Source of the DNA: Stegostoma tigrinum
Taxonomy: Eukaryota
DNA: 64,000 bases
NCBI RefSeq assembly: GCF_030684315.1
Contig: NC_081374.1
Span: 11,892,837 to 11,956,836 of the forward strand
Direction: 5' to 3'
The notes under the pieces were generated by a model, which had not been told where the DNA came from, searched no databases, and saw only the letters and a list, made by a program, of their open reading frames with translations. The translations under genes were made by a program, and so were the position numbers. Position 1 is the stretch's first letter; each line of letters begins with the position of its first letter. Of the stretch, positions 386 through 64,000 are shown piece after piece.

Positions 386-3300
386 TCCATTTTTGAGAAG
401 TTGAGATGTGATGCTGCTTGGCCTGCTGTGTTCATCCAGCCTCACATTTTATTACCATGTTTACACACTTGTTGCATGCTTTTCATTGTTCATCGTGGTT
501 TGATAAAATGACAAAAATGTGTAAATATTCTCAAGGGTGATGTATATCAGAAACCCGCTGATGTACAAAGAAGCTACGTGCTACCTGCTTTTGGTTGCAC
601 ATTGGAGAAGAGCTGCCCTGGTGCAGGGCCTGCTGGAGGTGAATATTATGGGTCCATGTCAATGTGAATGACATCATTTGATGCAGCGGGAAGAAACTGT
701 GAATAGATATATCGAGGTCTTGCCGGAGCTTCATGTGGTTTATCAGCCACAGAGAGTATAATTGAAAGGTGAGAGAATCTTTATCAATTCATCAACAGGG
801 TAGATTCCAAAGGACCTGAAAAAGAGTTATCAATTAAACTGAGCTGTATGCTGGAGCTAAAGTTCCTACAGCTCAGAACATTCATACACTGACCAGCAAC
901 TGTGTGACAAATAGTGCAGGAGTCAAGGGATGAGCCACCAAGTGTTACAGCAGGGACATTGCACTCCTCTTCCAAAAGCCTTCAAAGAGCTAAATAACAA
1001 ATGCCAATCCAAAATGATCCATTTAGCCCAAATGAACTAGATTCTCCTTGTCAACAATCCAATTCCTTGCAATCAATCACTTTCTGTGGCAAATAATTGC
1101 ATCAGCACATCACTCTCTGGGTCAGTGTTAACTCGAAGGGCTGAATAGCCTGCTTCACTGAACTGACAGCAAATCCACCAGCTTTACCCTGGGCCTGCTA
1201 GACATTTGGGATTGGCTTCCTCTATCACTGGTAAAAGCCCCGAGCCTGTGGAGAAAGCCCATTGGGAAACCACAAACCATACCTACAGGCATTGTAACGC
1301 TGTGCGGGCAGCCATTGCCTACAGCTCATTAAAGAGATAGAACTGGGTCACCTGCAGCAATATGTCTGCAGCTACTGACAGAAATGTTCAGTGGAGACAC
1401 ATTCTGGAAAGACAGGGACGGGACAGTTTTCTTAGAGCCCACATCACTGTTAATAAACTGGACATTGTGGGTAGGGCACTATGTGTCATTCAAGGCTGTA
1501 CTGAGAGTTTTCAGAGCGAGCCCTTTGATTACCGTCTCTGTGAAGGTACCCTCCTGGGACAGGCTCAGATACACGTTGTGGTGGATCACTGCACCATCCT
1601 AGAGCAAATGAGACGTCAATTCTACTGAGAGAGGGGTTTTTGTTTGTCTGAGAAGCATGGTCTTTTAAAAATGGCTGAGTGCCTGCCCACCAGGATATGG
1701 CTTTGACGCTGAAATAGTCACCTTACAGGGTCCCTGACAATTTGATCAAATACTCCTCACTTTGTGACGAAGTGCTGCATTCACCGTTTCCTCACAGAAT
1801 CAAATTGACACACACAGCCCTCTCAGGGGAATGAGTGTTTCTACCTCTGGCTCCATGTTTAAAGCCCAGAAGTGTAACAGGTCAATCACTGCCAGCCAAG
1901 AATAGCCCTTCGCAGCACACGGGCTGGGGCTGGGAAAGAAGAAAGAAGCGTTTCTGAGTGCACATTGTTGGTGCACTGTGAACCTTCAGTGAGAATCCAA
2001 TCACAAATTCATAAATGATTTGCCACATTACATCCTCACCTGTCTGCTTCAACGCAAGCTATAATGACCAAGCAACACAGGCTTGGTGCCCTGAGCATCA
2101 TCCCATCTTACAGCCTGCTCAAAGGCAGTGCTCCTCTTTCCTTCATGTCCAGCATATCACACAACTTGTCGTTGTACAATGGGAGAGCATCACATGGTGC
2201 AAAACCTTCCAATTGTTGCAAATGTCCATTTTGGATTACACAACAAGAAAAGTGAAGCAAAACCCAACAAAAAGAAGCTGAATTTGTGCCTGGCAGTGAA
2301 TCGGGCCGGCTTGCCTTTCAAGCAGCAACAAATTTACACTCAACAAATGGTCACCTCTCAAATGAGATCCATTGGAATCCTGCATTCATAAAATCCTCAC
2401 CAACTCTTCAGTATCCATTCAAAATCAGACTTACATTTCATTGATATTGAGGATGTAATGTTTCAATCTCATCATATTTTTCCAGCTGATTCTACAGTGC
2501 CAATGTCATTCAGGGACTGGCAGGTCTCTGTTCTCTATTTCTAACACCCAGACACTGGTGTCGTCATGGCAGAGGGGTTTCATCCACATTGGGGGAATAA
2601 CCCCCAAAGTTTCCAACTGTTCTACAGGAGATTACCCAACGTACTGTTTCTGTTTCCCAGACAGAGCATTGCGATGGTCCTCACTGGTTCAGTCTCTGGG
2701 TAACAACTCCAGTGACTCTCCTTCCATATTAAGCATTAAGGTGGGAGCATTGCCTTCAGCATTGTGGGTGGGGGTTAGCAGAGTTGGTGCAGGGTGTCAG
2801 CCCCTTTGATCTTCTCAACGATGAAACCCAGCATGATTCACCAGGCTCACTCATCATCAACCACATCCTGGGAAGTACAAAGCCCCATGCCAGGCAGTTC
2901 ACCAGAGTGACCCTCACCTTGGAATTGAAACTCGCTCCCAGTTACTCAATCACAGCTCATGTCTCCCAGACTTGTCTCTCTGTCAGTTGAGTTCCCTTTT
3001 CTGCTTGAAATTGGCCACATTACTTGTTTATTTGGGTCTTTTGGAAACAGAGCAGAGGGTGTCCTTCTCCTGCACATCCAGGAATTCATATCCTGGCTCC
3101 GTAATTATTCAGCACTCACAACAGGAGGGCAATTTGCAAATAAAAAACAAAATATTAATGAATATCCTACATTGAAATGCAGAAGTAATTTTTACAAAAG
3201 AAATCAATTTCTGTCAAAAACTGTTTGTTGACATTGTCTATCTTTGGAGAATGGGCCAATTGTGTTTCACCTGAGAATGGAAAGAGAAGGCAGCAGCGGA

Positions 3301-4164
3301 ATTGGCAGATTCCAGATGCAGCTCAGGGTTTGCCCTTTCGGTCCATTGCTCATTTGTTTTCCGTTTCGTGATGTTCTGTTGTTAAATTGTTAAAGTTGTA
3401 TTTATCCTGCTTACATAGAGAATGGTGGTGATGACATCAGAGCATTGGAACAGATGAGGGCGCGGACCGGAGCTGGACGGACAGCGGTCGGGCGGCCACT
3501 GCAGAGTGGACCGTGAGTAGAGCAGAGTGGTCTGTGGGCTGGAAGCTGGAGCAGGGAGTCAATGGCGGACAGACTGGGGCCTGTTAGAGCCAGCCTGTCA
3601 CAGATGGTCGTCAACGGATTGTGAGCCCATTGTGGGGACGGCCCAACATTGAGAGGTGATGGGGGGAGGCCGCACGCGGGAAGCCCCCAGTGTGGAGTGA
3701 CTACCGGCTACAGAAGGACTGTCATCTTTCTTTTTAACTTTATTTCTTTATTTCCCTCATATATTCTACAAAGAATTGTAATGAACAACTTATCACCTTT
3801 TTCTTTACTTCTCTATTTTTGTAACTGGCCTGTTTTTGTGCCTAAGATTTGCAACCATGTACTTTGTACTTAAGATGACTGCATGCTTGGTGACATTATA
3901 CATTTTTCACTGTACTCCTGTGCTTTTGTACTTAAGTACATGTAACAATGAAACGAAATTCTAATTCTAATTCAGCATAAATCATAAGCTTGGATCACCA
4001 TTACCCATAGCACCTCATTCATTCACAATCTTGAGTTCAGAATTTTCTGTTCCTTCAATGAAAATTAATTTTGAGCCTCTGTTGAACATAACTAACAGGA
4101 GATTAATTCGTTCAGGGTCAGTTTTCACCGTCTGGCTTACTGCAGTTTCAAAAGCTGCCTTCTA

Positions 4165-4180
4165 TATCCTCTTCCTCATT
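4165..4180 (-). promoter_or_regulatory. Conserved ETS/PU.1-like motif (aatgaggaagaggata)
   Basis: tatcctcttcctcatt recurs at 47624-47639 and 58108-58123, about 100 bp upstream of the leader ATGs. GAGGAA is the PU.1/Spi core. Confidence 0.5.
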
Positions 4181-4239
4181 TACGTTCTCATAGGCATTGC
4201 ACTACACACTCCTGTGCTTAAACAAAGGAGAACACGATA

Positions 4240-4820
4240 AAATGAGGGAGGAGTTGGCTAAAGTAGACTCAAAGCAATGTCTCCATGGGGGGTGGGGGGA
4301 CAGTTGAGGAACAGTGGACGACTTTCAAAGTTCTCCGAAAAAGTATATACCAGCAAAAAGGAAGGACTGTAGGAAAAAGTACAATCAGCCACGGAGCGAG
4401 GGGGTTTATCAAATTGAAAGACAAGGCATACAAAATGGCAAAGATCAGTGGGAAACTGGAAGACTGGGAAAACTTTAAACGTCAACAGAAAGCCAGAAAG
4501 AAAGGCCTTAAAGAATAGTAAGATAAATTACAAGATTAAACCAGCTCAGAATAGAAAGACAGATAGCAGCGGTTTCTGTCATTCAACAAAACAAAATAGA
4601 GTAGCTAAGGTAGACAATGGTCCTTTACAGGATGAAAAGGGGGATTTAACAGTGGGAAATGAGGAATTAGCTGAGATTTTGAACAGGTACTTTGTGTCTG
4701 TTTTCACAATGGAGGGCACAAATCACATGCCAGTAATTCATGACAAAGAGACGAAGGTAGGTGAGGACCTAGACATGATCATTTTAACAAAAGAAGTAGT
4801 GTTGGGCAACTAATGGAGCT
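4240..4820 (+). mobile_element. Degenerate CR1 ORF2 fragment
   Basis: Translates to ...GPLQDEKGDLTVGNEELAEILNRYFVSVFT, similar to GPIRDSIGNL...EVGEALNEFFASVFT in the 16140 ORF. Confidence 0.8.
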
Positions 4821-5054
4821 CTTCACCTTGTGGTTAAAACCCTTTCTATCATTTTAGTCAAGAATTGTTACCCACACAAAGAGCTATTCGTCCAAAAAGA
4901 CCACTGGTTTGGTATTTAATGACATTTAATGGCATTTACTTGGTCATCAACAAGCTTCTCCTATTCCACATCAGTACACAATGTGGCAGCAATTTAAACA
5001 TTTTTTCTGAAGTGTGTCTCCACAAAGAATCAGTAAATTACATCTATTATTGAA

Positions 5055-7590: not shown

Positions 7591-7627
7591 ATGCAGAGGC
7601 TGGTTCTATTCATTTGTTTGGTGCTCG
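7591..7627 (+). pseudogene. G1 leader (signal peptide) exon
   Basis: ATG...MQRLVLFICLVL-G|gtgagt; 37 nt, phase 1, the same size and donor as the G4 leader. Confidence 0.8.
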
Positions 7628-10499: not shown

Positions 10500-10821
10500 C
10501 TTCAATTTCTCTGTGGACAAAGGAGAAGGTAACAGGAATTGTGGGAAGATCAATCACAATAGATTGTAACTACAACACAAGGCACAAGGACAACATGAAA
10601 TACTGGTGTCATAGCAGGACCACGCACTGCTCATATTTGGTGAGAATGACTGATCCAGGTGGGCAGTGATGGAGAACGTCAATCAAAGATAACAAGACAC
10701 AAGGAGTATTTGTTGTTACCATGGAGGGTCTTCACATGGAAGATGCAGGATGGTACAGCCTGTGGTATTGATCGAACAGCTGGTGATGAATTACGTGCTG
10801 TGAACCTCAAAGTATCGCACG
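10500..10821 (+). pseudogene. G1 CD300/pIgR-type Ig V exon (disabled)
   Basis: ttgtcag|..SISLWTKEKVTGIVGRSITIDCNY..KYWCHSRTTHC..*WRTSIKDNKTQGVFVVTM..EDAGWYS/CGI..NLKVSH G|gtacat. In-frame TGA at 10667-10669 and an extra C at ~10760. Confidence 0.9.
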
Positions 10822-10944
10822 GTACATTTTACGTCTTTTTTTATTAATCTCGACTGAAATATCTGACGTATGTTTTATCTGGGAGGAACCATGAAGCCTT
10901 TAATACCCCAAGGTGTTGCAGCAGAGCTCATATTTGTTGGTAGG

Positions 10945-13228: not shown

Positions 13229-13552
13229 AACCTGTGTCTGTTCTGATAATTCAGTTTTTATCACCATCAAATATCTCGTGTTTTGAGAACTCAGATTCTA
13301 CCTCCTGTGAGTCTGCCCAGGGATCCCTTCCCATTCGGTACAAATGGCATGAACAGATATCATCTGAAGATACAAAGATTTTTGAGATCAATAAGCTGCA
13401 TCTAAAATGTCAATTATTTAAACTGTAACTTCATTGATTTTACTGCACAGCATCAAATACTCAGGGAGAAAACTCCAGTGAAATGGTGAATGTATCAGTC
13501 ATCTACAAACCAGAGAAGAACTGCACTTTTGTGGCACAAATTGGGAGCTGTG
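13229..13552 (+). pseudogene. G1 C2-type Ig exon (disabled)
   Basis: EPVSV...SCESAQGSLPIRYKW...LHLKC..*..*FYCTASNTQG...EKNCTFVAQIGSC G|gtaaat. The acceptor AG is mutated to TG (13227-13228); stops at 13426 and 13435. Confidence 0.9.
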
Positions 13553-14353
13553 GTAAATATTATTTTTAGATTCTTCAAGTGTCGTTGTGTTTTTCAAAGA
13601 ATATCTGCATTAGTCAGATATAATATATCTTCTCCCTTGTGAATACATCTCTCCCAGACCAAATGAGCTTATGTTCTAAAAGCAGTCAATTTAACCGGGT
13701 TTCCTTGAGTTAATAAAGAGTGAGTTTGTTTGTTAATAAACCAGAATATTAATACTGCAACACACATACATAGAGATTTAGAATATGAAGTGAAACCAAA
13801 GAATAGTAGTTCGTTAAAGATGTACAGTTCAGCCTCTGAGTTGTTTCTAAAGAGTGGGTAGTAGAACATTACAGCCATTTTCGTGAACATTACTTGTTGG
13901 ACTGAACAGTTGATTGACATTCTTGGCTTTGTAGATTGTTTGAAATTATTTTTTCCTAGTCCCTTTTGACAGAGGCAGGCGCGCTTCACTCTAAGTAAGA
14001 AAGAGTTTTATGCCCCTCTGTATGTACAGTGCAGGATTGTTTAAAGACTGTTCTCAAAGCTGTGACTTTTGTATAGTTGCATTGTAGCCATAGTTAAATC
14101 AGCATTTTGACCCATTTATAGAAAGAATCAGTCCACGAAACCCTCGGGTATGAACCCATGACCAAAGGAAATCAAAAGATCAATATTCAACATTATATAT
14201 CACATGACAATGGAAATGACATAAAGATTAAACCATTAATCCCCTCCCCAGTCTGCCAAAAAAGTCCTTGGGGCCCATTTGCGAAGAGAGGCCTCTTGGT
14301 TGACTGCAACTGAGAATCAGAATAAATTGAACATTTTCCCCATTTCTCCATAG

Positions 14354-14534
14354 GAATTGAATTTAACTGTGAAGCTTCTCCGACAATGTCACCAGCAACT
14401 TCAACAACATCATCAAAAACTTCAAGAACATCACCAACAAATTCAAGAACAACACTGACAAATACAACGATTGCACCAACTATTTCAACTACAGATTCAA
14501 CCATATTTTCAAGGCCTGTGAATGCCAGTGAAAG
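14354..14534 (+). pseudogene. G1 Ser/Thr-rich mucin-like stalk exon
   Basis: tctccatag|GIEFNCEASPTMSPATSTTSSKTSRTSPTNSRTT...NASE AG|gtacaa; phase 1 to 2, compatible with both flanking exons. Confidence 0.8.
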
Positions 14535-15745: not shown

Positions 15746-16130
15746 GTAATGCACTTTGACACATTCCTCCACTGCTTTTAACAATACTGATCACAGATAA
15801 TGTGAATCAGAACATTCATTGATAGAAATCCTTTCATGGCCCCAGGATGAAACAAAATGTGTTACAGCCAACACTGTAAGCGTGTTACTGTTGTCAAGCA
15901 GGAAAATCAAGTTGATCCTCATTCTGGATGGAATTATAATTTTTAAACTTTGTTGCTTCATCCACCCAGAAGGGATCAGTGTTACATCAGTCTAGTCTAA
16001 TCTCTGATGTATGAAAGTTTCACAGTGTGTTTGGTGGATGTTTTTATAACTTAATGACTTTGTCTTTACGACATCCCAGCCAAACTTAAAAAAGTTATCT
16101 TTCAAATATTAGCATCAATTTTTCAACAAA

Positions 16131-18108
16131 GAGAGAGCGGTGGAGCTTCTAGTGAAAAGGAAGAAGGTAGCTTACATAAGGTGGAGGAAGCTAGGGTCAA
16201 GTTCAGCTAGAGAGGATTACATGCAGGCAAGGAAGGAGCTCAAAAATGGTCTGAGGAGAGCCAGGAGGGGGCACGAGAAAGGCTTGGCAGAAGGAATCCG
16301 GGAAAACACAAAGGCATTTTACACTTACGTGAGGAATAAGAGAATGGTCAAAGAAAGAGTAGGGCCGATCAGGGATAGCATAGGGAACTTGTGTGTGGAG
16401 CCTGAGGAGGTAGGGGAAGCCCTAAATGAGTTTTTTGCTTCTGTCTTTACGAAAGAATCGAACTGTGTAGTGAATGAAACCTTTGAAGAGCAGGTGTGCA
16501 TGCTGGAATGGATAGAGATAGAGGAAGCTGATGTACTGAAAATTTTGTCAAACATTAAGATTGACAAGTCGCCAGGCCCGGATCAGATTTGTCCTCGGCT
16601 GCTTTGGGAAGCGAGAAATGCAATTGCTTCGCCACTTGCGAAGATCTTTGCATCCTCGCTCTCCACTGGAGTCGTACCTGAGGACTGGAGAGAGGCAAAT
16701 GTAATTCCTCTCTTCAAGAAAGGAAATAGGGAAATCCCCGGCAATTATAGACCGGTAAGTCTCACGTCTGTCGTCTGCAAGGTGTTAGAAAGGATTCTGA
16801 GGGATAAGATTTATGACCATCTGGAAGAGCATGGCTTGATCAAATACAGTCAACACGGCTTTGTGAGGGGTAGGTCATGCCTTACAAACCTTATCGAGTT
16901 TTTTGAGGATGTGACTAGTAAGGTTGATGAGGGTCGAGCTGTGGATGTGGTGTATATGGACTTCAGTAAGGCATTTGATAAGGTTCCCCATGGAAGGCTC
17001 ATTCAGAAGGTCAGGAGGAATGGGATACAGGGGAACTTAGCTGCTTGGATACAGAATTGGCTGGCCAACAGAAGACAGCGTGTGGTAGTAGAAGGAAAAT
17101 ATTCTGCCTGGAAGTCAGTGGTGAGTGGGGTTCCACAGGGCTCTGTCCTTGGGCCTCTACTGTTTGTAATTTTTATTAATGACTTGGACGAGGGAATTGA
17201 AGGATGGGTCAGCAAGTTTGCAGACGACACAAAGGTCGGAGGTGTCGTTGACAGTGTAGAGGGCTGTTGTAGGCTGCAGCGGGACATTGACAGGATGCAG
17301 AGATGGGCTGAGAGGTGGCAGATGGAGTTCAACCTGGATAAATGCGAGGTGATGCATTTTGGAAGGTCGAATTTGAAAGCTGAGTACAGGATTAAGGATA
17401 GGATTCTTGGCAGCGTGGAGGAACAGAGGGATCTTGGTGTGCAGATACATAGATCCCTTAAAATGGCCACCCAAGTGGACAGGGTTGTTAAGAAAGCATA
17501 TGGTGTTTTGGCTTTCATTAACAGGGGGATTGAGTTTAAGAGTCGTGAGATCTTGTTGCAGCTCTATAAAACTTTGGTTAGACCGCACTTGGAATACTGC
17601 GTCCAGTTCTGGGCGCCCTATTATAGGAAAGATGTGGATGCTTTGGAGAGGGTTCAGAGGAGGTTTACCAGGATGCTGCCTGGACTGGAGGGCTTATCTT
17701 ATGAAGAGAGGTTGACTGAGCTCGGTCTCTTTTCATTGGAGAAAAGGAGGAGGAGAGGGGACCTAATTGAGGTATACAAGATAATGAGAGGCATAGATAG
17801 AGTCGATAGCCAGAGACTATTTCCCAGGGCAGAAATGGCTAGCACGAGGGGTCATAGTTTTAAGCTGGTTGGTGGAAAGTATAGAGGGGATGTCAGAGGC
17901 AGGTTCTTTACGCAGAGAGTTGTGAGAGCATGGAATGCGTTGCCAGCAGCAGTTGTGGAAGCAAGGTCATTGGGGTCATTTAAGAGACTGCTGGACATGC
18001 ATATGGTCACAGAAATTTGAGGGTGCATCCATGAGGATCAATGGTCGGCACAACATTGTGGGCTGAAGGGCCTGTTCTGTGCTGTACTGTTCTATGTTCT
18101 ATGTTCTA
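16131..18108 (+). mobile_element. Young 5'-truncated CR1 LINE with an uninterrupted RT ORF (16140-18020)
   Basis: 626-aa open frame with NYRPVSLTS, DFSKAFD, GVPQGSVLGP and FADD motifs; (ttctatg)n tail. Confidence 0.97.
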
Positions 18109-26165: not shown

Positions 26166-26866
26166 TAACTTCACGGACCTGAGCAAGTCCCCTGAAGAGC
26201 AAGAGTCAGGTTCCAGTCTGGGACAATTTCAGTCCCGAGACAGAGGAATAGGGCTCTGGGATGTGTTTTAATAAATTTTTCTGAGATGTTTTCAGCAGAT
26301 TTCCTGCCACCAATCTCTTTGCTGGTATTAGTCTAGCTCATTGATATCACTTTTGAAGAATGTCCATGCACTGTCTTTTGTAGAATATCACTTTGGCCTT
26401 GATCAAGCAGCAGATTGGATTATTACACATTACTTCATAGCACATTGCATTACATATAAGGCATATGATTGCCTTGTGTAAAACTATCTGGATCAACTTA
26501 GATTAAGTACATTATACCTTCAGCTAACATGAAGGACAATCACTGATACACTGCACATTCTGTGGTGAACATATGAGAATTTGTAGGACTCAAGCAGAAC
26601 ATGGCTAGCTCCTCCCACGAGCTATCCTTAGAATGTATCTGGTCGCAGATGTGTTGCAATTACTCTCTTTACAGATAAAAGGGAAAATGTGGCTCCACAC
26701 CAATTCACTCAAATGGAACAGTCATCAAACTTCTTAAACTGATGCTGAATTGCACTAACGTGCTCATCTCAGTGAAATAAGCACATCTGATCATCTCACA
26801 GGCATCGAACTTCTTTAAATCTAAAACAGGTTGCTGTAAAGTGAACCCTCACCCTAAGAACAGCTC

Positions 26867-26967
26867 TAATCCTATCCCTAACCCTAACCCTAATCCCAAC
26901 CCCGTCCCGAACCCAAATCCCAATCCCAAACCCAACACTAACCTTAACCCTGACCCTAACCCTAATC
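26867..26967. repeat. Degenerate interstitial telomere-like (CCCTAA)n tract
   Basis: ccctaaccctaaccctaa...accttaaccctgaccctaaccctaa, with a 6-bp period. Confidence 0.75.
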
Positions 26968-27938: not shown

Positions 27939-28265
27939 AACCCGTCTCTGTTCCTATACTTAGATTTTTATCATCTCCACCAAATGCCTCATGTTCTGGG
28001 AGCTCAGTGACAATCTCTTGTGAATCTGTCCACAGATCCCTCCCCGTTCAGTACACATGGTCTGAAAAGACCCCATCTGAAGATTCAAAGATCTCTGACA
28101 CCAATAAACTGGATCTACTTTGTCTATTCTTCACACAGCAACATCATCGATATTACTGCACAGCCTCAAATACTCAGGGCGAAAATTCCAGTGAAGAGGT
28201 TCATGTGTCAGCCAGCCACAGGTCAGGGGAGAGCTGCAGTTCTGTGGCATAAATCAGCAGCAGTG
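27939..28265 (+). pseudogene. G2 C2-type Ig exon with one late premature stop
   Basis: ttccatag|EPVSVPILRFL..NASC..VTISCESVHRSLPVQYTW..LDLLC..YYCTASNTQG..ESCSSVA*ISSS G|gtaatt. TAA at 28250-28252 corresponds to CAA in G1. Confidence 0.9.
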
Positions 28266-32782: not shown

Positions 32783-32871
32783 TCCGGTTTACATTGTGGT
32801 CGCTGTACATGGGGCCATGCTCATTGTTTTTGCTGTTTTGCTGCTTTTGTACCTGAAGCAAGCCAGCAAGG
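32783..32871 (+). pseudogene. G2 transmembrane exon (no Lys/Arg within the TM)
   Basis: tatcgcag|SPVYIVVAVHGAMLIVFAVLLLLYLKQASK G|gtgagt; phase 2 to 1. Confidence 0.85.
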
Positions 32872-36262: not shown

Positions 36263-36548
36263 TAAATGTGAAGGAGTGAAGAGAACATGGTATATTCAGC
36301 TATGAAACACAAGCAAAGTAGATCAAGAGGAATACATAGTGAAGGAACTGCCCATTTTAAGAATAATACAAATGGAGTCATGTATGCAGAGCTGCAGTTT
36401 CAAAAGAAGTCATCAGCACGGAGTGGTGAGACAAGTTACTCTGTTACCAGGGGCAATGCCAAGGTTCAAAGCCAGCTCCCAGAGAACAAGGTCGTAACTC
36501 CAAAAGGAGAGAATTTGCCAGAATCTGAAATGGCAACTTATACTGAAG
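36263..36548 (+). pseudogene. G2 cytoplasmic exon with ITIM-like motifs
   Basis: ttttag|...SEENMVYSAM...GVMYAEL...EMATYTE G|gtaagt. The first 24 nt contain stops (phase 0) or a frameshift (phase 1). Confidence 0.8.
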
Positions 36549-44214: not shown

Positions 44215-47200
44215 ATTTTGAGATCGGAAGAAAATGTTTCCACATTTATTGCACATTTTGATATTCATCACAGATTGACACTGTAAGAAAATGTGTGAAT
44301 ATGCCCAAGGAAAATGTATGATAGAAACACACGAATGTACAATGAGCCTCAGTGTTAGCTCCTTTTCTGTGCACATTGGAGAGGTGCTGACTTGGTGCAG
44401 GACCTGCTGGAGGCTGACATCATGGTTCCTGGTCCATTTAAAGAACATCATTTGATGCAGATGGAACAAGCAGCGGACAGATGCTTAGGAGTCCTGCCTG
44501 AGCTTTATGCGGTTTATGAACGACAAAAATGATAGTGGAAAGATGAGAGAAGCTTTATCGACTAATTTGCAGGGTAGATTCTAAAGCGCAAGAAGCAGAG
44601 CTATCAATTTAATCGTGCCGTAAATTGGAGCTAAAGTTCCTAATCTCAGAACATTTACATATTGTCCAGGAACTGTCCAACAAATAGTGCAGGAGTCAAG
44701 GAACGTGCCACCAAATGTTATAGCAGGGACATTACACTACTCTTCCAATAGACTATAGACAATAGGTGCTGGAGTAGGCCATTCGGCCCTTTGAGCCAGC
44801 ACCACTGTTCATTATGATCATGGCTGATCATCCACAATCAGTATCCTGTTCTTGCCTTATCCACATAACCCTGGATTCCACTCTCTTTAAGAGCTCTATC
44901 CATCTCTTTCTTGAAACTATCCAGAGACTTGGCCTCCACGGCCTTCTGGGGCAGAGCATTCCATATATCCACCACTCTCTGGGTGAAGAGGTTTTTCCAC
45001 GACCCTGGTCTAAATGGCCTACCCCTTATTTTTAAACTGTGTCCTCTGGTCCTGGACTAACCCATCAGCGGAAACATGCTTCCTGCCTCCAGAGTGTCCA
45101 ATCCCTTAATAATCTTATACATCTCAATCAGATCCCCTCTCATCCTTCTAAACTCAAGTGTATACAAGCCCAGTCGCTCCAATCTTCCAAAGGCCTTCAA
45201 GCAACAAAATAATATTTGTCAATCAAAAATGATCTCTTTAGCCCAAACAAACTAGATTTAACTTCTCCTTATAAATATTCAATGCCTTACCCTCAGCTAC
45301 TTTGTGTGGCAGAGAACTGTATCAGCTCACCACTGTCTGGGTTAAGAATTATCCACACATCTCAGGCCTCATCTCAACATCCTCCCCGACCCGAAAACCA
45401 ATCCACCGGTTTTAATCAGGGTCTGCTAGACACCTGGGATTGTCCTCCTCTATCACTGGTAAAAGCCCCGAGCCTGTGGAGAAAGCCCTTTGGCAAACCA
45501 CAAACCATACCTACAGGCATTGTAACGCTGTGCGGGCAGCCATTGCCTACAGCTCATTAAAGAGATAGAACTGGGTCACCTGCAGCAATATGTCTGCAGC
45601 TACTGACAGAAATGTTCAGTGGAGAGGCATTCTGGAAAGACAGGGAGGGGACAGTTTTCTTAGAGCCCACATCACTGTTAATAAACTGGACATTGTGGGT
45701 GGGGCACTCTGTGTCATTCAAGGCTGTACTGAATGTTTTCACAATGAGCCCTTTGATTACTGTCTCTGTGAAGGTAACCTCCTGGGACAGGTTCGTGTAC
45801 ATGTTGTGGTGGATCACTGCACAATTCCAGAGCAACTGGGATGTCCATCCTGATGAGGGAGGGTTTTTGTGGCAGGCCTAGGCCCTGCAATTGTTGGTCT
45901 CAGAAGAATGGTCTTTTAAAAATGGCTGAATGCCTGCCAACCAGGGTATGGCTTTGACACTGAAAAAGTCACATAACAGGATTCCTGACAATTTGAACAA
46001 ATACTCCTCACTTTGTTACAAAGTGCTGCATTCACTGTTTCCTCACAGAGTCAAATTGACACACACAGCCCTCTCAGTAAGATGAAGGTTTCCACCTCTG
46101 GCTCCATGTTTAAAGCCCAGCAGTGTAACAGGTCAATCACTGCCAGCCAAGAATAGCCCTTCGCAGCATACGGGCTGGGGCTGGGAAAGAAGAAAGAAGC
46201 GTTTCTGAGTGCGCATTGCCGGTGCGCTGTGAACCTTTCGTGAGAATCCAATCTCAAATTCATAAATGATTTGCCACATGCCACTACAAACTGTAACAAA
46301 CTAGCAACACACGGTTGTTGCCCTGAGCATGATTCCAAATTACAGTCCTCTAGGAGGCAGTGCAATTCTTTCCCTCACATCCACATAGCACACAACTTGT
46401 CATTGTACAGTGTGAAGGCTGCACATGAGGCAAAACCTTCAAATTGTTGGAAATGGATGCAGGTTCAAACAACAGGAAAGTAATGCAAAAAGAAGTTGCA
46501 TCTGTGCCTGGCAGTGAACAGGAGCCATTTGCCTTTCAAGCAGCAACAAATTTACACTCAATAGATGATCACCCCTCAAATGAGTTCCATCTGAATCCTG
46601 TATTCATTAAATCCTCACCAGCTCTTCAGCATTCATTCAAAATCAGACTTATATTTTCTTGCTGTCGAAGATTTAATGTTTTAATCTTGGCACATTTTCC
46701 AACTGATTCTACAGTGCCCATGTCTTTCAGGGTCTGGGAGATCTCTGCTCTCTATTTCTGCTCTCTATTTCTGAGCCTCAGATACTGATGACCTCACGGC
46801 AGAGGGATTTCATCCACACTGGGGTAATAACGCCCAAATGTTTCTAAGTGTTCTACAGGAGATTACCCAATGTACTGTTTCTGTTTCCCAGACAGAGCAT
46901 TGCGATGGTCCTCACTGGTTCAGTCTCTGGGTAACAACTCCAGTGACTCTCCTTCTATATTAAGCATTAAGGTGGGAGCATTGCCTTCAGCATTGTGGGT
47001 GGGGGTTAGCAGGGGTGGTACAGGGTGTCAGCCCCTTTGATCTTCTCAACGATGAAACCCAGCATGATTCACCAGGCTCACTCATCATCAACCATATCTT
47101 AGGAAATACAAAGCCCCATGTCAGGCAGTTCACCAGAGGGACCCTAATCTTGGAATTGAAGCTCACTCCCAGTTCCTCAATCACAGTTCGCTTCTCCCAG

Positions 47201-47690
47201 AATTGTTTCTCTGCCAGGTGTGTTTATTTTTGCCCAAAATTGTCCTCATTATTTGTTGATGTGCATCTTCTCCTTCTCCGGTACACCTACGTGTTCAGAT
47301 CCTACAGAATAATTATTTAGCATAAACAAGAGTCACATTACGTAAAAAGCAAAATTATTGGTAGAACTTTGATGCTTATGGCAGAACAAATTTTCACAAA
47401 ACGAGTCTATTAATTTCATTAAATGTTGATATTTTTGAACATGGGAGAATAAGCCAATTGTCACTCACTTGAAAATTCAGTATACTTGATTTCATAACTT
47501 TCTTTCCTTGGAGAGAAAATTAATTCAGGTGTTCTACTGAAACTTAGCTCACAGGAGACTAATGCCTTCAGTGTGAGATTTTTATCATGTAGTTTACTGT
47601 GGTTTTGTAATCTTTTCTTCTCATATCCTCTTCCTTATTTCAGTGCTTGTAAACATTGCATTATGCACTGCACTATGAAAAACAAGAGCT
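44215..47690 (+). repeat. Upstream block and promoter, copy 2 (precedes G3)
   Basis: Colinear with 460-4230. Confidence 0.9.
44749..45182 (-). mobile_element. CR1 3' fragment with an 8-bp TSD
   Basis: tcttccaa at 44741-44748 and 45183-45190; the paralogous empty site has a single copy at 968-975. Confidence 0.88.
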
Positions 47691-47732
47691 GTAGGACTGA
47701 CATCAAGAATTGAAATGATCTTCTTGAATAAA

Positions 47733-47772
47733 ATGTTGCGGTGTTTGATTCTCCTCATCCATTTCATTCCCA
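47733..47772 (+). pseudogene. G3 leader exon
   Basis: MLRCLILLIHFIP A|gtgagtgacc; paralogous to 58219-58255. Confidence 0.8.
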
Positions 47773-48077
47773 GTGAGTGACCATTCAAGCTGCTTATTCA
47801 GATAATCAATGTTTGTTGACGTCTGCTGCCTGATTGTCCAGTAGAGATGTAAATATTTGGAGATATGTAAAGGCACAAATGAATATCTTGTGACACAGTG
47901 GGGAACATATTTATTGCTTTTACAGATGCTGAATGTTCGATTCACGCCCCAGCATATTTTGCAATGGAATGTGTATTCTGATAAACAGGTTCATTATTGA
48001 CCTGCAAATCCTCTGAACGTGCCCATGGCAGGGAGCAAGGGTGGGTGAGATTCCAGGTCAGCCTTATCCAAGGCAGG

Positions 48078-48682
48078 GTGAGATGATGCTGTCACTTTCA
48101 AAGGTTATTTTGTCCTGGTTTTGTTTTGAAGGGAGATTATAAAACAGAAGCATGTGTGTCAAATTTGTGAGGCCTCGTTTTTCTTCCAAATTTGGAACAA
48201 CTGAAGGAGTATGGGTGTGGCCACGTCTCACAGTCCAGGCTCTCTATTTTTGTACTTTTTAAGGTTCAGTTTCAAGCAGAAGCCATGAGGGTCTCAACAG
48301 AATTGGGGATCAGTGAATGTCTCCCAACTGGTCCACCCTCTGTGTCTTTACTTGATGATTTTTCCTCCTGGATTGGAGAACTACATGTGAGAATTTGTGT
48401 CTGAATTTTCCCTTCTGCCAAGTAGTGTGTTTATGAGATGTTACTATATTTGAACGGTTGATTAGTAACAGCTCCTGTATCTATTATTCGGTTAAGTTTT
48501 CCAATAGTTAAATTATTCTGCTTCCTCTTTCTTCACTTGTATTTTGACAATAGTGTTTAAATAAATGACCAGTTACATTGTATCTGCAGCATAGCATTTC
48601 ACATCTACTTTTAAAATAAGAACAAGTTAGGGTTGAGGCTACCTTCTTAAAATGTTTTGAGGGGTCTGGTCTGGTTCATAAC
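48078..48682. mobile_element. LTR-like insertion in G3 intron 1
   Basis: Absent at the paralogous G4 position (~58555); ends in cataaca. Confidence 0.4.
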
Positions 48683-52735: not shown

Positions 52736-53050
52736 TTTCAGGTGCTTTATGGACAGAGAACCATGTAACAGGAATTTTGGGAAGAGTGATCACAATACAT
52801 TGCCACTGCTAAGCACGGTGGTATCAGTCACACGTGAAATATTGGTGTCACGGATGGTCTCGTCAGTGTAATGTTATAGCAACAACAAACTGGGCAAATG
52901 GGAGAATATCAATCACTGATAACAAAGCACAAGGAATATTTCTTGTTACAATGAAGAATCTTCAAAGGGCAGAAGCAGGATGGTACAGCTGTGGGATTGA
53001 GGCTCTTGGCCTTTATCCAACGTTTAATGTAAATCTCAGCATTTCTAATG
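52736..53050 (+). pseudogene. G3 Ig V exon (disabled)
   Basis: SGALWTENHVTGILGRVITIHCHC*ARW...KYWCHGWSRQC...EAGWYSCGI. TAA at 52810-52812; the donor GT is mutated to GA. Confidence 0.92.
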
Positions 53051-55799: not shown

Positions 55800-58200
55800 G
55801 TCCATACTTGTGAAGTTGAGATGTGAAAAAAATGCTTCTACATTTGTTGCATGCTTTGATGTTCGTTGTGAATTGACACTGTATGAAAAATATGTGAATT
55901 TTTTCAAGGGGGACGTGTGACAGAAATCCATGAATGTACAAAGAGACAAAGTGTTAACTATTTCCATCTGCACATTGGAGTTTGGTGTGTCAATGGAATG
56001 ACAGAGAGAAATGATTCAGGCAGGTTGAACAGTAACATTTAAAAATCATTCCGATAGATACATGGATGGGAGAGGTTTAGAGGGATATGGGCCAAATGCC
56101 AGGAATTGGAACGAGCTGGGGATGCACCATGGTCAGTATGGACCAGTTTGTGCTGAAGGGCCAGTTTCCACGCTGCCTTCCTCTATGAGTATATTACTTT
56201 ATTCTCAAGGGCTGGAATAATAGTATCATTTAAACTGTGCTCTCAACTGGAGCCATAGCTCTTACAGCTCAGAACATGTCTATGACAGAGTATTGTATCC
56301 GCTCAAAGCTTCGGGGTGAAGAATTATCCACACATCTCAGGCCTCATCTCAACGTCCTCACCGACCCGAAAACAAATCCACCGGTTTTAATGAGGGCCTG
56401 CTAGACACCTGGGATTGGCCTCCTCTATCACTGGTAAAAGCCCCGAGCCTGTGGAGAAAGCCCTTTGGCAAACCACAAACCATACCTACAGGCATTGTAA
56501 CACTGTGCGGGCAGCCATTGTCTACAGCTCATTAAAGAGATAGAACTGGGTCACCTGCAGCAATATGTCTGCAGCTACTGACAGAAATGTTCAGTGAAGA
56601 CACATTCTGGAAAGACAGGGAGGGGACAGTTTTCTTAGAGCCCACATCACTGTCAATAAACTGGACATTGTGGGTGGAGCACTCTTGTGTCATTCAAGGC
56701 TGTTCTGAGAGTTTTCAGAACGAGCCCTTTGCTTACCGTCTCTAAGAGGGTAACCTCCTGGGACAGGTTCGTGTGCACATTGTGGTGTATCACTGCACAA
56801 TTCCAGAGCAAATGGGATGTCTGTCCTGATGACAGAGGGGTTTTGTGGCAGGTTCAGTTCATACAATGGTTTGTCTCAGAAAAGCAGGCTTTTGTCAACT
56901 GCCAAGTGCCCATCTCACGGGATATGGTTTTGAAACTGAGCATGTTTTAAAACTGAGTGGCTTTTAAAAAGTGCTGGCTGCCCATCGACCAGAGCGTGGC
57001 ATTAACACTAAGCAAGACACTTCAGAGGATCTCTGGCAATTTGGTCAGACATTCTACACTTTGTTAAAAAGAACTGCATTCCCTGTTTCATCACAGTCTA
57101 ATGATAAGTCTCATTATATTTTTCCAGCTGTTTCTACAATGCCCATGTCATTCAGGGTCTGGCAGTTCCCTGCTCTCTATTTCTGACCCTCAGACACTGA
57201 CACCCTAATGTCAGAGGGTTTCATCCACATTGATGTAATAAACCCCAAATGTATCCAACTGTTCTACAGGAGATTACCCGATGTACTGTTTCTGTTTCCC
57301 AGACAGAGCATTGCGATGGTCCTCACTGGTTCAGTCTCTGGGTAACAACTCCAGTGACTCTCCTTCTATATTAAGCATTAAGGTGGGAACACTGCCTTCA
57401 GCATTGTGGGTGGGGGTTAGCAGAGTTGGTGCAGGGTGTCAGCCCCTTTGACCTTCTCAAAGGTGAAACCCAATTTGATTCACCAGGCTCACTCATCATC
57501 AACCACGTCCTGGGAACCACAAAGCCCCATGTCAGGCAGTTCACCAGAGGGACCCTCACCTTGGAATTGAACTCACCCCCCAGTTACTCAATCACAGCTC
57601 ACGTCTCCCAGAATTGTCTCTCTGTCAGCAGAGACCTTTTTCTGCCTGAAATCAGCCTCATTACTTGCTTAACTTGACTCTTATAAAAATGGAGCAGAGA
57701 GTGTCCTTCTCCTGCAATCCAGGAGTTCACAATAATTGACACAATAATTATTCTGCACTCTCAACAGGAGGCACATTCTGCAAACAAAAATTCAAAACAA
57801 ATCAATGTTTAACTGCACGATGAATTTTCACACATAAATCTGCATTTGTCATAAACTGGTGTTTGGAATTTTCTGACATGGGAGAATTAGACAGTTTTCA
57901 TTCACTTGAGAATTCAGTCTAAATACTGAGCTTCAGTCACTGCTATCTGTACAACTGACTCTTGAAATGTTGTGATTTCAGAAATTTTTTATTCATTCAT
58001 TGAAATTTAGTTGAGTTCTTCTGTTAAGCATAGCTGACAGGACAAACATTTCTTCAGGGTTAATTCGCATCATGTGGCAGACTGTAGTTTCAGAAGTTGG
58101 CTTCCTATATCCTCTTCCTCATTTACATTCTTGTAGACGTTGTATTACTCATTTATTTCAGCGTGAGAAACAAGAGCTGTGTGACTGACATCAAGAGCTG
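55800..58200 (+). repeat. Upstream block and promoter, copy 3 (precedes G4)
   Basis: Colinear with copies 1 and 2, with an internal deletion near 57100. Confidence 0.9.
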
Positions 58201-58218
58201 ATCTTTGTGAATAAAACA

Positions 58219-58255
58219 ATGTGGACTTTGATTCTTCTGATTTGTTCCATTCCCG
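58219..58255 (+). CDS. G4 leader exon of an MDIR/CD300-like receptor
   Basis: MWTLILLICSIP G|gtgagt; splices in phase to VSGALWAE. Confidence 0.88.
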
Positions 58256-59993
58256 GTGAGTGACCATCTGAGGTGTTTATTTCAATAACTAATACTTATT
58301 AAAGTCTCCCGTCTGGTTTATACAGTCTAGAGGTGTTTACATATTTGGAGACACGTAAAAAAACAAAGGAACATCATGTTGACACAGCAGGTAACATCTT
58401 TATTGCTGTGACAAATGCCTGAGAATTTGATTCATTCTCCAGCGCATTCTCACAAACCCAAACAGGTTCACCATCAACCTGCAAATTCTTTCAATGTGCT
58501 CATGGCGGGGAGCAAGTGTGGATGAAATTCCAGGTCAGATTTATCCAGCGCAGTGTGTTTCCTCTCAAATACTGTCTCAGGACAGTAACCTTTTCCAGGA
58601 AGAACAAACTGCAGAAATCTGATGCACCATGTGCTTTACGAAAGCCTTTGAAGTTCAAATGAAAAATGTAAAAATACATGAACAACATCAGGAAATATTA
58701 TATCTTCTTCTGAATATATGATAATGTCATGGGACATAGTTACAAAATACTTTACTGCTGCATTAGTAATTATCAATAAAATGAAAAAGGAGACATTTTT
58801 ATAGTGATTCAAACAGCATAAACAATTGAACTCGTCCAAAATTTTTCATTTTCAATATACACTGAAAACTGGAGTGGAAGTCAGCCTTCAAACAAAAGAT
58901 CTTGTGTTTTGATTTCATTCTTTTTTAACTCTTATGACAATTCATTAAATACTGTTTTGCAAGGTGCTGTCACAAAAGTAGGTGGTTAGATTATATATCT
59001 TCCCATAAAAAGCTTTTTTCCTTTCAGTCATTAAGTTTAACTGAGTTGCTGATGGTATTTTTTGCCCTTCACTTATAACTTTAAAATCTATCACTGCAAT
59101 AAACTTATTGTTCAGTATTGCCACTTCCCCTTCATTGATGATCAAGCAAATTTGAAACACAAAATATTAAAATTCCAAGGGGTGGAGCTCAATGAAGTGT
59201 TCGAGGAGAACCTTCTACAACAGTTTGAGACTCAACCTCATCAATTTCATGCAGAATACCTTACGGACAGTTAACTGAAGCGTGCTTCTGTGTGTTCAGA
59301 AATCCTCTTCGTTTCGAGGCTTCCTCTTTCCAATAAGAACTCTAATCCATGACTTCCATCAGCTTTAACCATTTATGCATTTTCTACCTTTTGCATTTCC
59401 TTTCAACAGCCTCATTTATTTTAAAATCTTTCTATCATTTCAGTCGAGAACTGTTCCCCACAGAAAGAGCCTATCTCCCAAAAAGACTGATCGTCTCGTG
59501 TCTTTTGAAGTAAACTCTACCCATTCATCAACAGGCTGTTCCCGCTCCACTCCAGGACACAATGTGACAGCAATGAGCCGACACACCAGCCCCCCATCAC
59601 TCCCTGGCTGAAAGCCTCACTCTCTGGTCAGAACAAGGACCCTCCACCCCCTGTAGCTTCCTTCACACTCATCCCCAGCTGACTCCAATCCAGGCCTGTC
59701 ACTCAGACTGCTCTCCAGGACGGCAAGATCTCGATGATGCCACACGCAGTGGAGTTCGAGCCCACAGCGTGTAACAGAAGGCCAATTTCAAGATTGATCC
59801 AAAACTCGATCAATGGGGAAACGCTGTTTAAATTATTCCCTGTGAATCTGGAAAACTCTGAGGGCCTGATAAGGGTTTATATTAATGATTACCTTCATCA
59901 TAAATTGGATAGAATGGAACTGATTACAATGTAACTGAAAATGAAAAGCACTTCTTTAGAAATTTCCAAATCTCTGAAATATTTTCTGCTCAG

Positions 59994-60308
59994 TTTCAGG
60001 TGCTTTATGGGCAGAGACATCCTTGACGGGAATTTTGGGAAGAGCGATCATAATACATTGCCACTATGAAGCACAGTGGTACCAGTCACACATTAAATAT
60101 TGGTGTCATGGATGGACTCGTCAGTGTAATGTTTTAGCAGCAACAAACTGGGCAAATGGGAGAATATCAATCACTGATAACAAAGCACAAGGAATATTTC
60201 TTGTTACAATGAAGAACCTTCAATGGGGTGAAGCAGGATGGTACAGCTGTGGGATTGACGCTCCAGGACTTGACCCACTGTTTAATGTACAGCTGCACAT
60301 CTCAGAAG
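59994..60308 (+). CDS. G4 CD300/pIgR/TREM-type Ig V exon (intact)
   Basis: ctcag|VSGALWAETSLTGILGRAIIIHCHY..KYWCHGWTRQC..GRISITDNKAQGIFLVTMKNL..EAGWYSCGI..VQLHISE G|gtacat; carries the family-specific extra Cys pair. Confidence 0.95.
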
Positions 60309-61814: not shown

Positions 61815-63777
61815 GATAATAAAATGTGAGGCTGGACGAACACAGCAGGCCAAGCAGCATCTCAGGAGCACAAAAGCTGACGTTTCGGGCCTAGACCCTT
61901 CATCAGAGAGGGGGATGGGGGGAGGGAACTGGAATAAATAGGGAGAGAGGGGGAGGCGGACCGAAGATGGAGAGTAAAGAAGATAGGTGGAGAGAGTGTA
62001 GGTGGGGAGGTAGGGAGGGGATAGGTCAGTCCAGGGAAGACGGACAGGTCAAGGAGGTGGGATGAGGTTAGTAGGTAGCGGGGGGTGCGGCTTGGGGTGG
62101 GTGGAAGGGATGGGTGAGAGGAAGAACCGGTTAGGGAGGCAGAGACAGGTTGGACTGGTTTTGGGATGCAGTGGGTGGGGGGGAAGAGCTGGGCTGGTTG
62201 TGTGGTGCAGTGGGGGGAGGGGGTGAACTGGGCTGGTTGAGGGATGCAGTAGGGGAAGGGGAGATTTTGAAACTGGTGAAGTCCACATTGATACCATATG
62301 GCTGCAGGGTTCCCAGGCGGAATATGAGTTGCTGTTCCTGCAACCTTCGGGTGGCATCATTGTGGCAGTGCAGGAGGCCCATGATGGACATGTCATCAAG
62401 AGAATGGGAGGGGGAGTGGAAATGGTTTGCGACTGGGAGGTGCAGTTGTTTTTTGCGAACTGAGCGGAGGTGTTCTGCAAAGCGGTCCCCAAGCCTCCGC
62501 TTGGTTTCCCCAATGTAGAGGAAGCCGCACCGGGTACAGTGGATGCAGTATACCACATTGGCAGATGTGCAGGTGAACCTCTGCTTGATGTGGAATGTCA
62601 TCTTGGGGCCTGGGATGGGGGTGAGGGAGGAGGTGTGGGGACAAGTGTAGCATTTCCTGCGGTTGCAGGGGAAGGTGCCGGGTGTGGTAGGGTTGGAGGG
62701 CAGTGTGGAGCGAACAAAGGAGTCACGGAGAGAGTGGTCTCTCCGGAAAGCAGACAGGGGAGGGGATGGAAAAATGTCTTGGGTGGTGGGGTCGGATTGT
62801 AAATGGCGGAAGTGTCGGAGGATAATGCGTTGTATCCGGAGGTTGGTAGGGTGGTGTGTGAGAACGAGGGGGATCCTCTTGGGGCGGTTGTGGCGGGGGC
62901 GGGGTGTGAGGGATGTGTCGCGGGAAATGCGGGAGACGCGGTCAAGGGCGTTCTCGATCACCGTGGGGGGAAAGTTGCGGTCCTTAAAGAACTTGGACAT
63001 CTGGGATGTGCGGGAGTGGAATGTCTTGTCGTGGGAGCAGATGCGGCGGAGGCGGGGGAATTGGGAATAGGGGATGGAATTTTTGCAGGAGGGTGGGTGG
63101 GAGGAGGTGTATTCTAGGTAGCTGTGGGAGTCGGTGGGCTTGAAATGGACATCAGTTACAACCTGGTTGCCTGAGATGGAGACTGAGAGGTCCAGGAAGG
63201 TGAGGGATGTGCTGGAGATGGCCCAGGTGAACTGAAGGTTGGGGTGGAAGGTGTTGGTGAAGTGGATGAACTGTTCGAGCTCCTCTGGGGAGCAAGAGGC
63301 GGCGCCGATACAGTCATCAATGTACCGGAGGAAGAGGTGCGGTTTGGGGCCTGTGTAGGTGCGGAAGAGGGACTGTTCCACGTAACCTACAAAGAGGCAG
63401 GCATAGCTGGGGCCCATGCAGGTGCCCATGGCCACCCTCTTAGTCTGTAGGAAGTGGGAGGAGTCAAAAGAGAAGTTGTTGAGTGTGAGGACGAGTTCAG
63501 CTAGGCGGATGAGAGTGTCGGTGGAGGGGGCCTGGTCGGGCCTGCGGGACAGGAAGAAGCGGAGGGCCTTGAGGCCATCTCCATGCGGAATGCAGGTGTA
63601 CAGGGACTGGACGTCCATGGTGAATATGAGGTGTTGGGGGCCAGGGAATTGGAAGTCCTGGAGGAGGTGGAGGGCGTGGGTGGTGTCACGGACGTAGGTG
63701 GGGAGTTCCTGGACCAAAGGGGAGAAAATGGAGTCCAGATAGGTGGAGATGAGTTCGGTGGGGCAGGAGCAGGCTGA
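61815..63777 (-). mobile_element. Young 5'-truncated Penelope with an open RT plus GIY-YIG frame and an 11-bp TSD
   Basis: MDVQSLYT, VAMGTCMGP, RYIDD and YCIHCTRCGFLYIGET motifs; ggtaattctcc at 61804-61814 and 63778-63788. Confidence 0.96.
61877..61908 (-). ncRNA. Minimal hammerhead ribozyme motif
   Basis: Minus strand reads ct-CTGATGA-a-ggg(tctagg)ccc-GAAAC-GTC-ag. Confidence 0.7.
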
Positions 63778-63788
63778 GGTAATTCTCC

Positions 63789-64000
63789 CCCCACCCAGTG
63801 CATCCCAAAGCCCAGCTCGCCCCCACTGCATCCCAAAATTCAGCTCGTCCCCTCCCCCACCACTGTGTCACAAAGCCCAGCTCATCCCCTGCAGCCCCAA
63901 CTGAATCCTAAAACCAGCCCAGCTTGTCCCCTCCTCCCTAACCTGTTCTTCTTCTCACCTAACCGCTCCTCCCACCTCAAGCCGCATCTCCATTTCCTAC
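63789..64000 (+). mobile_element. Older Penelope 3' tandem-repeat region
   Basis: cccactgcatcccaaa...cccagc units like those at 34440-34620. Confidence 0.75.

Follow-up and report, generated by a model that had tools for sequence, protein, structure and literature searches.

Why should short stretches of non-coding DNA stay nearly identical between tandem duplicates whose surroundings have drifted far apart? This question is raised by a 64,000-nucleotide stretch of shark DNA (hereafter, the window), in which the initial annotation had noticed almost identical islands within a triplicated upstream region and had offered either a strongly constrained module or recurrent gene conversion as their cause. 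Our analysis favors conversion: with a probability of about 0.65, and on the evidence of sequence comparison, we consider the islands to be tracts, likely in need of no function of their own, in which recurrent interlocus gene conversion has kept old tandem copies of a CD300-like receptor upstream region alike.

A partly pseudogenised receptor cluster

The window contains a cluster of genes with V and C2 immunoglobulin domains amid LINE-type repeats. A Pfam search of 14 open reading frames (ORFs) gave clear matches for immunoglobulin exons only, among them the open V exon of gene 3 (60002 to 60307, plus strand; V-set, E=1.4e-6), which is 58% identical to the skate protein CMRF35-like molecule 1, the sole candidate found. 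By this likeness, the downstream genes appear CMRF35/CD300-like, the name being a database label only; our literature search turned up no paper on this cluster. The cluster is partly pseudogenised, with V1, C1, V2, and C2 carrying stops or frameshifts (the V exon of gene 2, at 52744 to 53049 on the plus strand, has a stop at codon 23) and V3 and C3 remaining open. Predicted leader exons were placed on the plus strand at 47733 to 47772 for gene 2, with an ATG, a hydrophobic peptide, and a GTGAGT donor, and at 58219 to 58255 for gene 3, where the predicted junction is similar to the N-terminus of P0001.

Gene 1 (7591 to 36580) comprises a leader (7591 to 7627), a broken V exon (about 10502 to 10822), a broken C2 exon (about 13230 to 13554), a Ser/Thr-rich stretch near 14340 to 14530, a second C2 exon with a stop near 27940 to 28250, a predicted membrane exon at about 32783 to 32871, and a cytoplasmic exon near 36265 to 36548 with the tyrosine motifs VYSAM and MYAEL. 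This arrangement suggests a broken inhibitory-type receptor. An intron contains, at 26866 to 26965, some 17 units of (CTAACC)n in a degenerate telomere-like array. Two long open retroelement frames, at 16113 to 18020 (635 aa) and 62131 to 63867 (578 aa), are presumably young LINE or Penelope-type insertions.

Self-comparison of the window revealed three colinear upstream blocks, all on the plus strand. Block A (457 to 3280), recognised by its colinear homology to the other two, is the upstream region of a leaderless unit, U0; block B (44234 to 48080) comprises the upstream region and leader of gene 2, and block C (55816 to 58557) those of gene 3. Blocks B and C end in the predicted leader exons at 47733 and 58219, and block A has no leader. 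A promoter-proximal remnant of U0 (4021 to 4210, plus strand) matches 47475 to 47669 and 57973 to 58151 at 71 to 75%, and a CR1-type LINE piece follows after 4210, where the leader exon would be expected; an ORF at 4418 to 4813 resembles, by eye, the LINE ORF at 16113 to 18020. U0 has the look of a decapitated unit, and a fragment at 4834 to 5051 matches the first introns of genes 2 and 3. A block profile search found no further copy elsewhere in the window, so that gene 1 (leader at 7591) lacks a block of its own, and the earlier suggestion of a module carried with each receptor gene needs qualifying.

Islands of near-identity between diverged copies

Segments flanking the islands in blocks A and B are 14 to 30% divergent. 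Over 457 to 967, for instance, A and B differ at 129 of 507 positions (25.4%), bearing out the initial annotation on the far greater divergence of adjacent parts of the duplicates. Island 1 lies at 1219 to 1480 in block A, with a shoulder to about 1630, and was aligned to 45447 to 45708 in block B and 56422 to 56683 in block C; copy A differs from B at 6 of 262 positions and from C at 9, and B differs from C at 7. The six or so mismatches previously counted between the first two copies were thus exact, and the near-identity of the third copy stood with its coordinates corrected to those given here. Island 2 (1845 to 1960, shoulder 1660 to 2028) differs at 2 of 116 positions from its block B copy, confirming the near-identity claimed earlier, the counterpart now being placed at 46096 to 46211; it is missing from block C by deletion and is therefore a two-copy island. 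Island 3, defined by block alignment, has its core at 2619 to 2818, with a shoulder to about 2960 and aligned copies at 46850 to 47049 (B) and 57261 to 57460 (C). Mismatches over its 200 positions number 5, 6, and 7 (A-B, A-C, and B-C), and an 84-nt run at 2641 to 2724 is invariant across the three copies. For the shorter version of this island first described, near-identity was upheld (5, 5, and 6 mismatches per 173), but the end points were about 10 nt off, the true copies being 46849 to 47021 and 57260 to 57432.

The islands are thus 96 to 98% identical within blocks that are 14 to 30% divergent. When the columns of the A-B alignment were shuffled 2,000 times, the best-matching stretches of 262, 200, and 116 nt reached minima of 21, 14, and 3 mismatches, compared with the 6, 5, and 2 observed; since shuffled alignments never fell that low, the identity of the islands is not due to chance. 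They form smooth identity peaks with shoulders of 84 to 92% instead of sharp blocks. Island 3 lies 0.7 to 0.9 kb, and island 1 about 1.5 to 2.3 kb, upstream of the leader ATGs. Islands 1 and 3 have in common a 10-base word (1463 to 1472 and 2760 to 2769), the longest motif shared between islands, and a decayed LINE 3′ tail on the minus strand (about 1066 to 1155) abuts island 1. As the initial annotation had observed, the islands persist intact in U0, whose block A has no leader exon, and they are more alike than the V exons (266 matches and 38 mismatches for V2 and V3; 210 to 213 and 76 to 77 for V1 against either), with the caveat that V2 and V3 contain an identical 76-nt core of their own.

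Homogenisation within species

Comparison with a second species (organism B) distinguishes conservation between species from homogenisation within one, and homogenisation within species was found to be concentrated in the identity peaks. We sampled 182 31-mers from 1180 to 2960, parts of which were contained in nine sequencing runs (four from the own species and five from organism B, the latter from three studies). The own-species runs held 79 to 85% of these words and the organism-B runs 5 to 6%, or about 7% after allowing for a word recovery of about 82%, a share biased upward by the 5% listing threshold. The two paralogs within the window hold 18.4%. Simulation gave shares of 22 to 32% under pure constraint, for which the islands should show an interspecies divergence of about 1%, and of 3 to 11% at a uniform divergence of 7 to 10.5%. 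An ultraconserved element should diverge much less between species than the observed share indicates, and pure constraint is therefore rejected, although the same 5 to 6% is also compatible with islands at 4 to 7% divergence, so that they could be somewhat more conserved than their flanks.

For finer comparison, one own-species run and three organism-B runs were aligned on 445 to 3285 at 80% likeness. In the flanks, organism-B contigs are 7 to 11% from block A, and paralog B is 14 to 27% from it over the same intervals, indicating that the duplication predates the separation of the two species; by these flank distances, the organism-B contigs are probably orthologous to block A. Between 457 and 1154, differences from A number 75 in 698 positions for the organism-B contig and 186 in 694 for paralog B, whereas between 1674 and 2008 the counts are 35 and 30 of 335 (contrast between the two intervals, p=2e-4). 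Over the latter interval, ortholog divergence is close to that of the flank (10.4% vs 10.7%), and for islands 1 and 3 it is bounded at about 3 to 4% or more.

The logic of type-C versus type-N sites, as set out in the available text of PMC2588116 and PMC3924837, was applied to the best-supported 40 of 497 interspecies variant rows, the contigs being 32 of 1,628 pieces picked by support and length. Copies A and B agree with each other and differ from organism B at 8 of 10 sites within 1219 to 2028 and 2619 to 2930 and at 1 of 30 elsewhere (Fisher p=5e-6); at 29 of 30 flank sites, copy A alone has the deviating base, and paralog B has that of organism B. Five of the eight shared sites lie in the island 2 shoulder and three (1459, 2631, and 2790) in island cores. 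Copy C retains the organism-B base at 1673, 1686, 1753, and 1756, so the base common to A and B is likely derived there. At 1459, all three window copies have T and organism B has A in its entire depth (192/192, 261/261, and 225/225), with A accounting for 6.4 of 156.5 depth in the own-species run. The three window copies also agree at 2631 and 2790, from which organism B differs in all depth at 2790 and in 55 to 100% at 2631. The cross-species comparison that the initial annotation had proposed as a check therefore came out in support of conversion.

The island cores hold 4 of the 40 best-supported interspecies sites against about 8 expected (p=0.07), and each run has 30 to 36 organism-B contigs with a likeness of 95% or more; the cores may thus be under some constraint. 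Depth peaks in the same bins in both species. According to the contigs, island 2 is missing from copies in both species, and some organism-B copies lack part of island 1 (1424 to 1483).

Probable traces of exchange within the window

The closest pair of copies changes along the block (chi-square p=1e-11 over 11 segments). It is B-C at 1100 to 1218 (34 sites unique to A, 4 to B, and 5 to C), A-B at 1660 to 1797 (7, 2, and 30, in the same order), and A-C at 2931 to 3150 (13, 34, and 18). A run of 17 polymorphic sites uniting B and C was found at 1125 to 1149; the run test was exceeded in 0 of 5,000 permutations for B-C, was weak for A-C (p=0.03), and was not significant for A-B (p=0.12). Coding sequence has its own example: in the V exons of genes 2 and 3, 52883 to 52958 equals 60141 to 60216 over 76 bases, even though V2 has a stop, and the core (codons 37 to 71) shows no synonymous differences in 29 codons, compared with 8 in 44 outside it (p=0.02, for an interval chosen after looking). 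This core is best read as a coding conversion tract, and the homogenising process is accordingly not special to the upstream DNA.

GC content follows identity along the block (rho 0.46, with 1 of 55 circular shifts as high), as predicted by GC-biased conversion; lineage-unique changes in the islands, 9 weak-to-strong and 7 strong-to-weak, show no clear GC bias. The initial annotation had suggested that the tracts may drive unequal crossing-over; deletion junctions in the listed contigs lie mostly beside the islands and not inside them. In the own-species run, the contig with the C-type junction (1610 joined to 2467) has a depth of 45.7 against 6 to 12 in unique flanks, roughly a sixfold excess and a hint of recent amplification into several near-identical C-type units outside the window, with the reservation that depth does not equal copy number.

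Alternative origins of the islands

Selection acting on an ultraconserved cis-regulatory or RNA module, with no exchange between copies, would account for the same islands appearing in all three pairs at 2 to 3.5% divergence against 14 to 30% in the flanks. Such selection cannot explain species-specific bases common to paralogs or the switching of the tree along the block, and it calls for the word share of 22 to 32% that organism B falls well short of. An RNA role finds no counterpart in Rfam, where the islands gave four matches, all far below the gathering score (best E=0.18), or in folding, with unremarkable z-scores of −1.12 to +0.48 for six strands. We regard this explanation as largely refuted and very unlikely to hold, and the strongly constrained module of the initial annotation is not supported as a sole cause, while its gene-conversion alternative is supported by the shared species-specific bases, the pair switching, and the word share.

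It is similarly improbable that the islands represent exons of a gene or lncRNA that has decayed or gone unrecognised, or old low-copy repeat pieces within the duplicated unit. By eye, a splice-like pyrimidine tract with AG can be seen on the minus strand at 1930 and 1404 and on the plus strand near 2660, and 12 to 28 contigs per run match near 1878 and 2309 (about 1878 to 1960 and 2309 to 2354) before continuing into diverged but alignable sequence, which possibly reflects a low-copy repeat family of some age, or else distant paralogs at other genomic sites. Pfam nevertheless found no family in 12 stop-read-through frames of the islands, six-frame PDB searches gave a single match at E=0.56, and two of three island ORFs had no match in protein searches. 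The third had a weak, repeat-like match (E=4.5e-4) to an internally repetitive unnamed protein, which was rejected. Codon periodicity was absent in 9 of 10 segments, including islands and shoulders, with one nominal p=0.045 outside the islands. The statement that the islands match no recognised repeat or protein is in keeping with the Rfam, Pfam, PDB, and protein searches, none of which gave a credible match; likenesses noted by eye to kinase, immunoglobulin C1, reverse-transcriptase, and secretory-tail motifs were likewise unsupported by Pfam, PDB, or protein searches. Searches of the rest of the window with tblastn and nhmmer returned only the decayed LINE tail left of island 1, and two island 25-mers had no match in viral contigs, exact matching being a weak test. 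Depth in the own-species run was 58 to 202 in island bins and 1108 at the adjacent repeat remnant, a hint against many genomic copies, although depth is not copy number. Because the copies are colinear in homologous flanks, they were not inserted independently, which speaks against a young dispersed repeat; exons or old repeat pieces would not by themselves explain homogenisation within species either.

Collapse or over-polishing of the assembly, which would make the island copies look identical, seems the least credible origin. The islands are multi-copy, no contig among those listed spans the whole stretch, and the own-species run may be the sample behind the window assembly. Yet read-derived own-species contigs match block A with 0 to 1 differences over 445 to 1247, 1519 to 1900, 1932 to 2340, and 2835 to 3285, four stretches of 382 to 803 bases that together reach into each of the three islands or its shoulder. 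In one contig, 1610 is connected to 2467 across 294 bases, the same as in block C, and private island variants are kept in each copy. This reproduction of block A and of the block C junction argues against an artefact.

Probable conversion, with or without function

Under recurrent conversion, exchange would require a stretch of near-perfect match to start; it would have ceased where substitutions, indels, and LINE insertions accumulated and would persist only where identity is still high. Such homology feedback would produce smooth peaks common to all copies regardless of whether the downstream gene is intact, and the islands are intact both before the leaderless unit and before a broken gene. 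In a neutral model with homology-dependent conversion, shared islands within diverged flanks arose in several of 8 settings, with an ortholog divergence of mostly 10 to 15%; none arose in any of 8 lower-rate settings, and others led to near-complete homogenisation. The model therefore needs tuned rates and shows that neutral islands are possible, not that they are necessary.

Conversion could alternatively be anchored by function, a possible but clearly less probable reading in which the islands are enhancer or promoter modules where moderate constraint let conversion persist or where selection favours conversion for the sake of paralog co-regulation. The distances of islands 3 and 1 from the leader ATGs would suit it, as would the small number of fixed interspecies sites in the cores and the matching depth peaks in the two species. 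All three copies retain an ISRE-like match (GAAANNGAAA) in island 3 and two RUNX-like ones, at 1274 and 1577, the sites being assigned by consensus patterns. The motifs do not exceed background, since the 64 kb contain 12 matches of the ISRE-like and 65 of the RUNX-like kind; moreover, the islands remain intact where no working gene follows, gene 1 is without such a block, and other copies have lost island 2 or part of island 1. In yeast, conversion is described as persisting where purifying selection keeps similarity, and long-lived conversion as often confined to constrained sequence, in the available text of PMC3924837, which hints at some function in the islands.

A bolder version, which we hold to be rather doubtful, takes the islands as candidate immune enhancers, carrying IRF- and RUNX-type sites, that also serve as long-lived starting points for recombination. 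If it were true, control DNA would undergo continual copy correction throughout a shark receptor cluster whose receptors meanwhile diversify and are lost, and the target of concerted evolution would be control elements, not exons. Should recombination in this lineage not be directed by PRDM9, stable promoter-like hotspots would fit; the two cartilaginous fish covered in the available part of PMC5519329 had only partial or weakly predicted PRDM9 domains.

Interlocus gene conversion is itself a known process. What is new is an instance in a little-studied cartilaginous-fish receptor cluster in which the strongest peaks are non-coding, with the caution that an ultraconserved element should not be deduced from high paralog identity in non-coding DNA. 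Should the tracts be active enhancers, they would matter more, since peaks of conversion usually cover coding DNA; in that case, the locus would let one test whether selection steers conversion toward paralog co-regulation.

Comparison with known systems

The primate SIGLEC11/SIGLEC16 pair, as described in the available portion of PMC5701461, resembles this cluster in involving paired immune receptors with repeated, lineage-wise conversion of upstream non-coding DNA and a V-set exon, at 97 to 99% identity and with no motif reported there at the boundaries. It differs in having one continuous tract of about 2 kb in an 88 to 93% background, whereas the shark cluster has three non-coding peaks of 120 to 260 nt in a 70 to 86% background, and neither its leader nor its proximal promoter is homogenised. 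Primate CD300A/CD300C (PMC12447643, in the text accessible) is close in receptor family by similarity, in V-domain homogenisation within species, comparable with the V2/V3 core, and in frequent pseudogenes. Concerted evolution is reported there for the coding ectodomain only and is disrupted after pseudogenisation, whereas the shark islands persist before broken genes.

Drosophila duplicates decaying from their edges (PMC2588116, and the review PMC3924837, as far as their available text goes) likewise show paralog identity peaks with decaying edges and a flatter ortholog divergence, but the surviving centre in the former usually covers a gene, and the strongest peaks here are non-coding. Mosaics of concerted and radiating segments in tandem paralogs are also described in the accessible parts of reports on the mammalian KRTAP1 repeats (10.1101/282418) and on HMA4 of Arabidopsis halleri (10.1101/2025.10.29.685298). 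In KRTAP1, the coding region evolves in concert and the flanks radiate, the reverse of the placement observed in this shark cluster.
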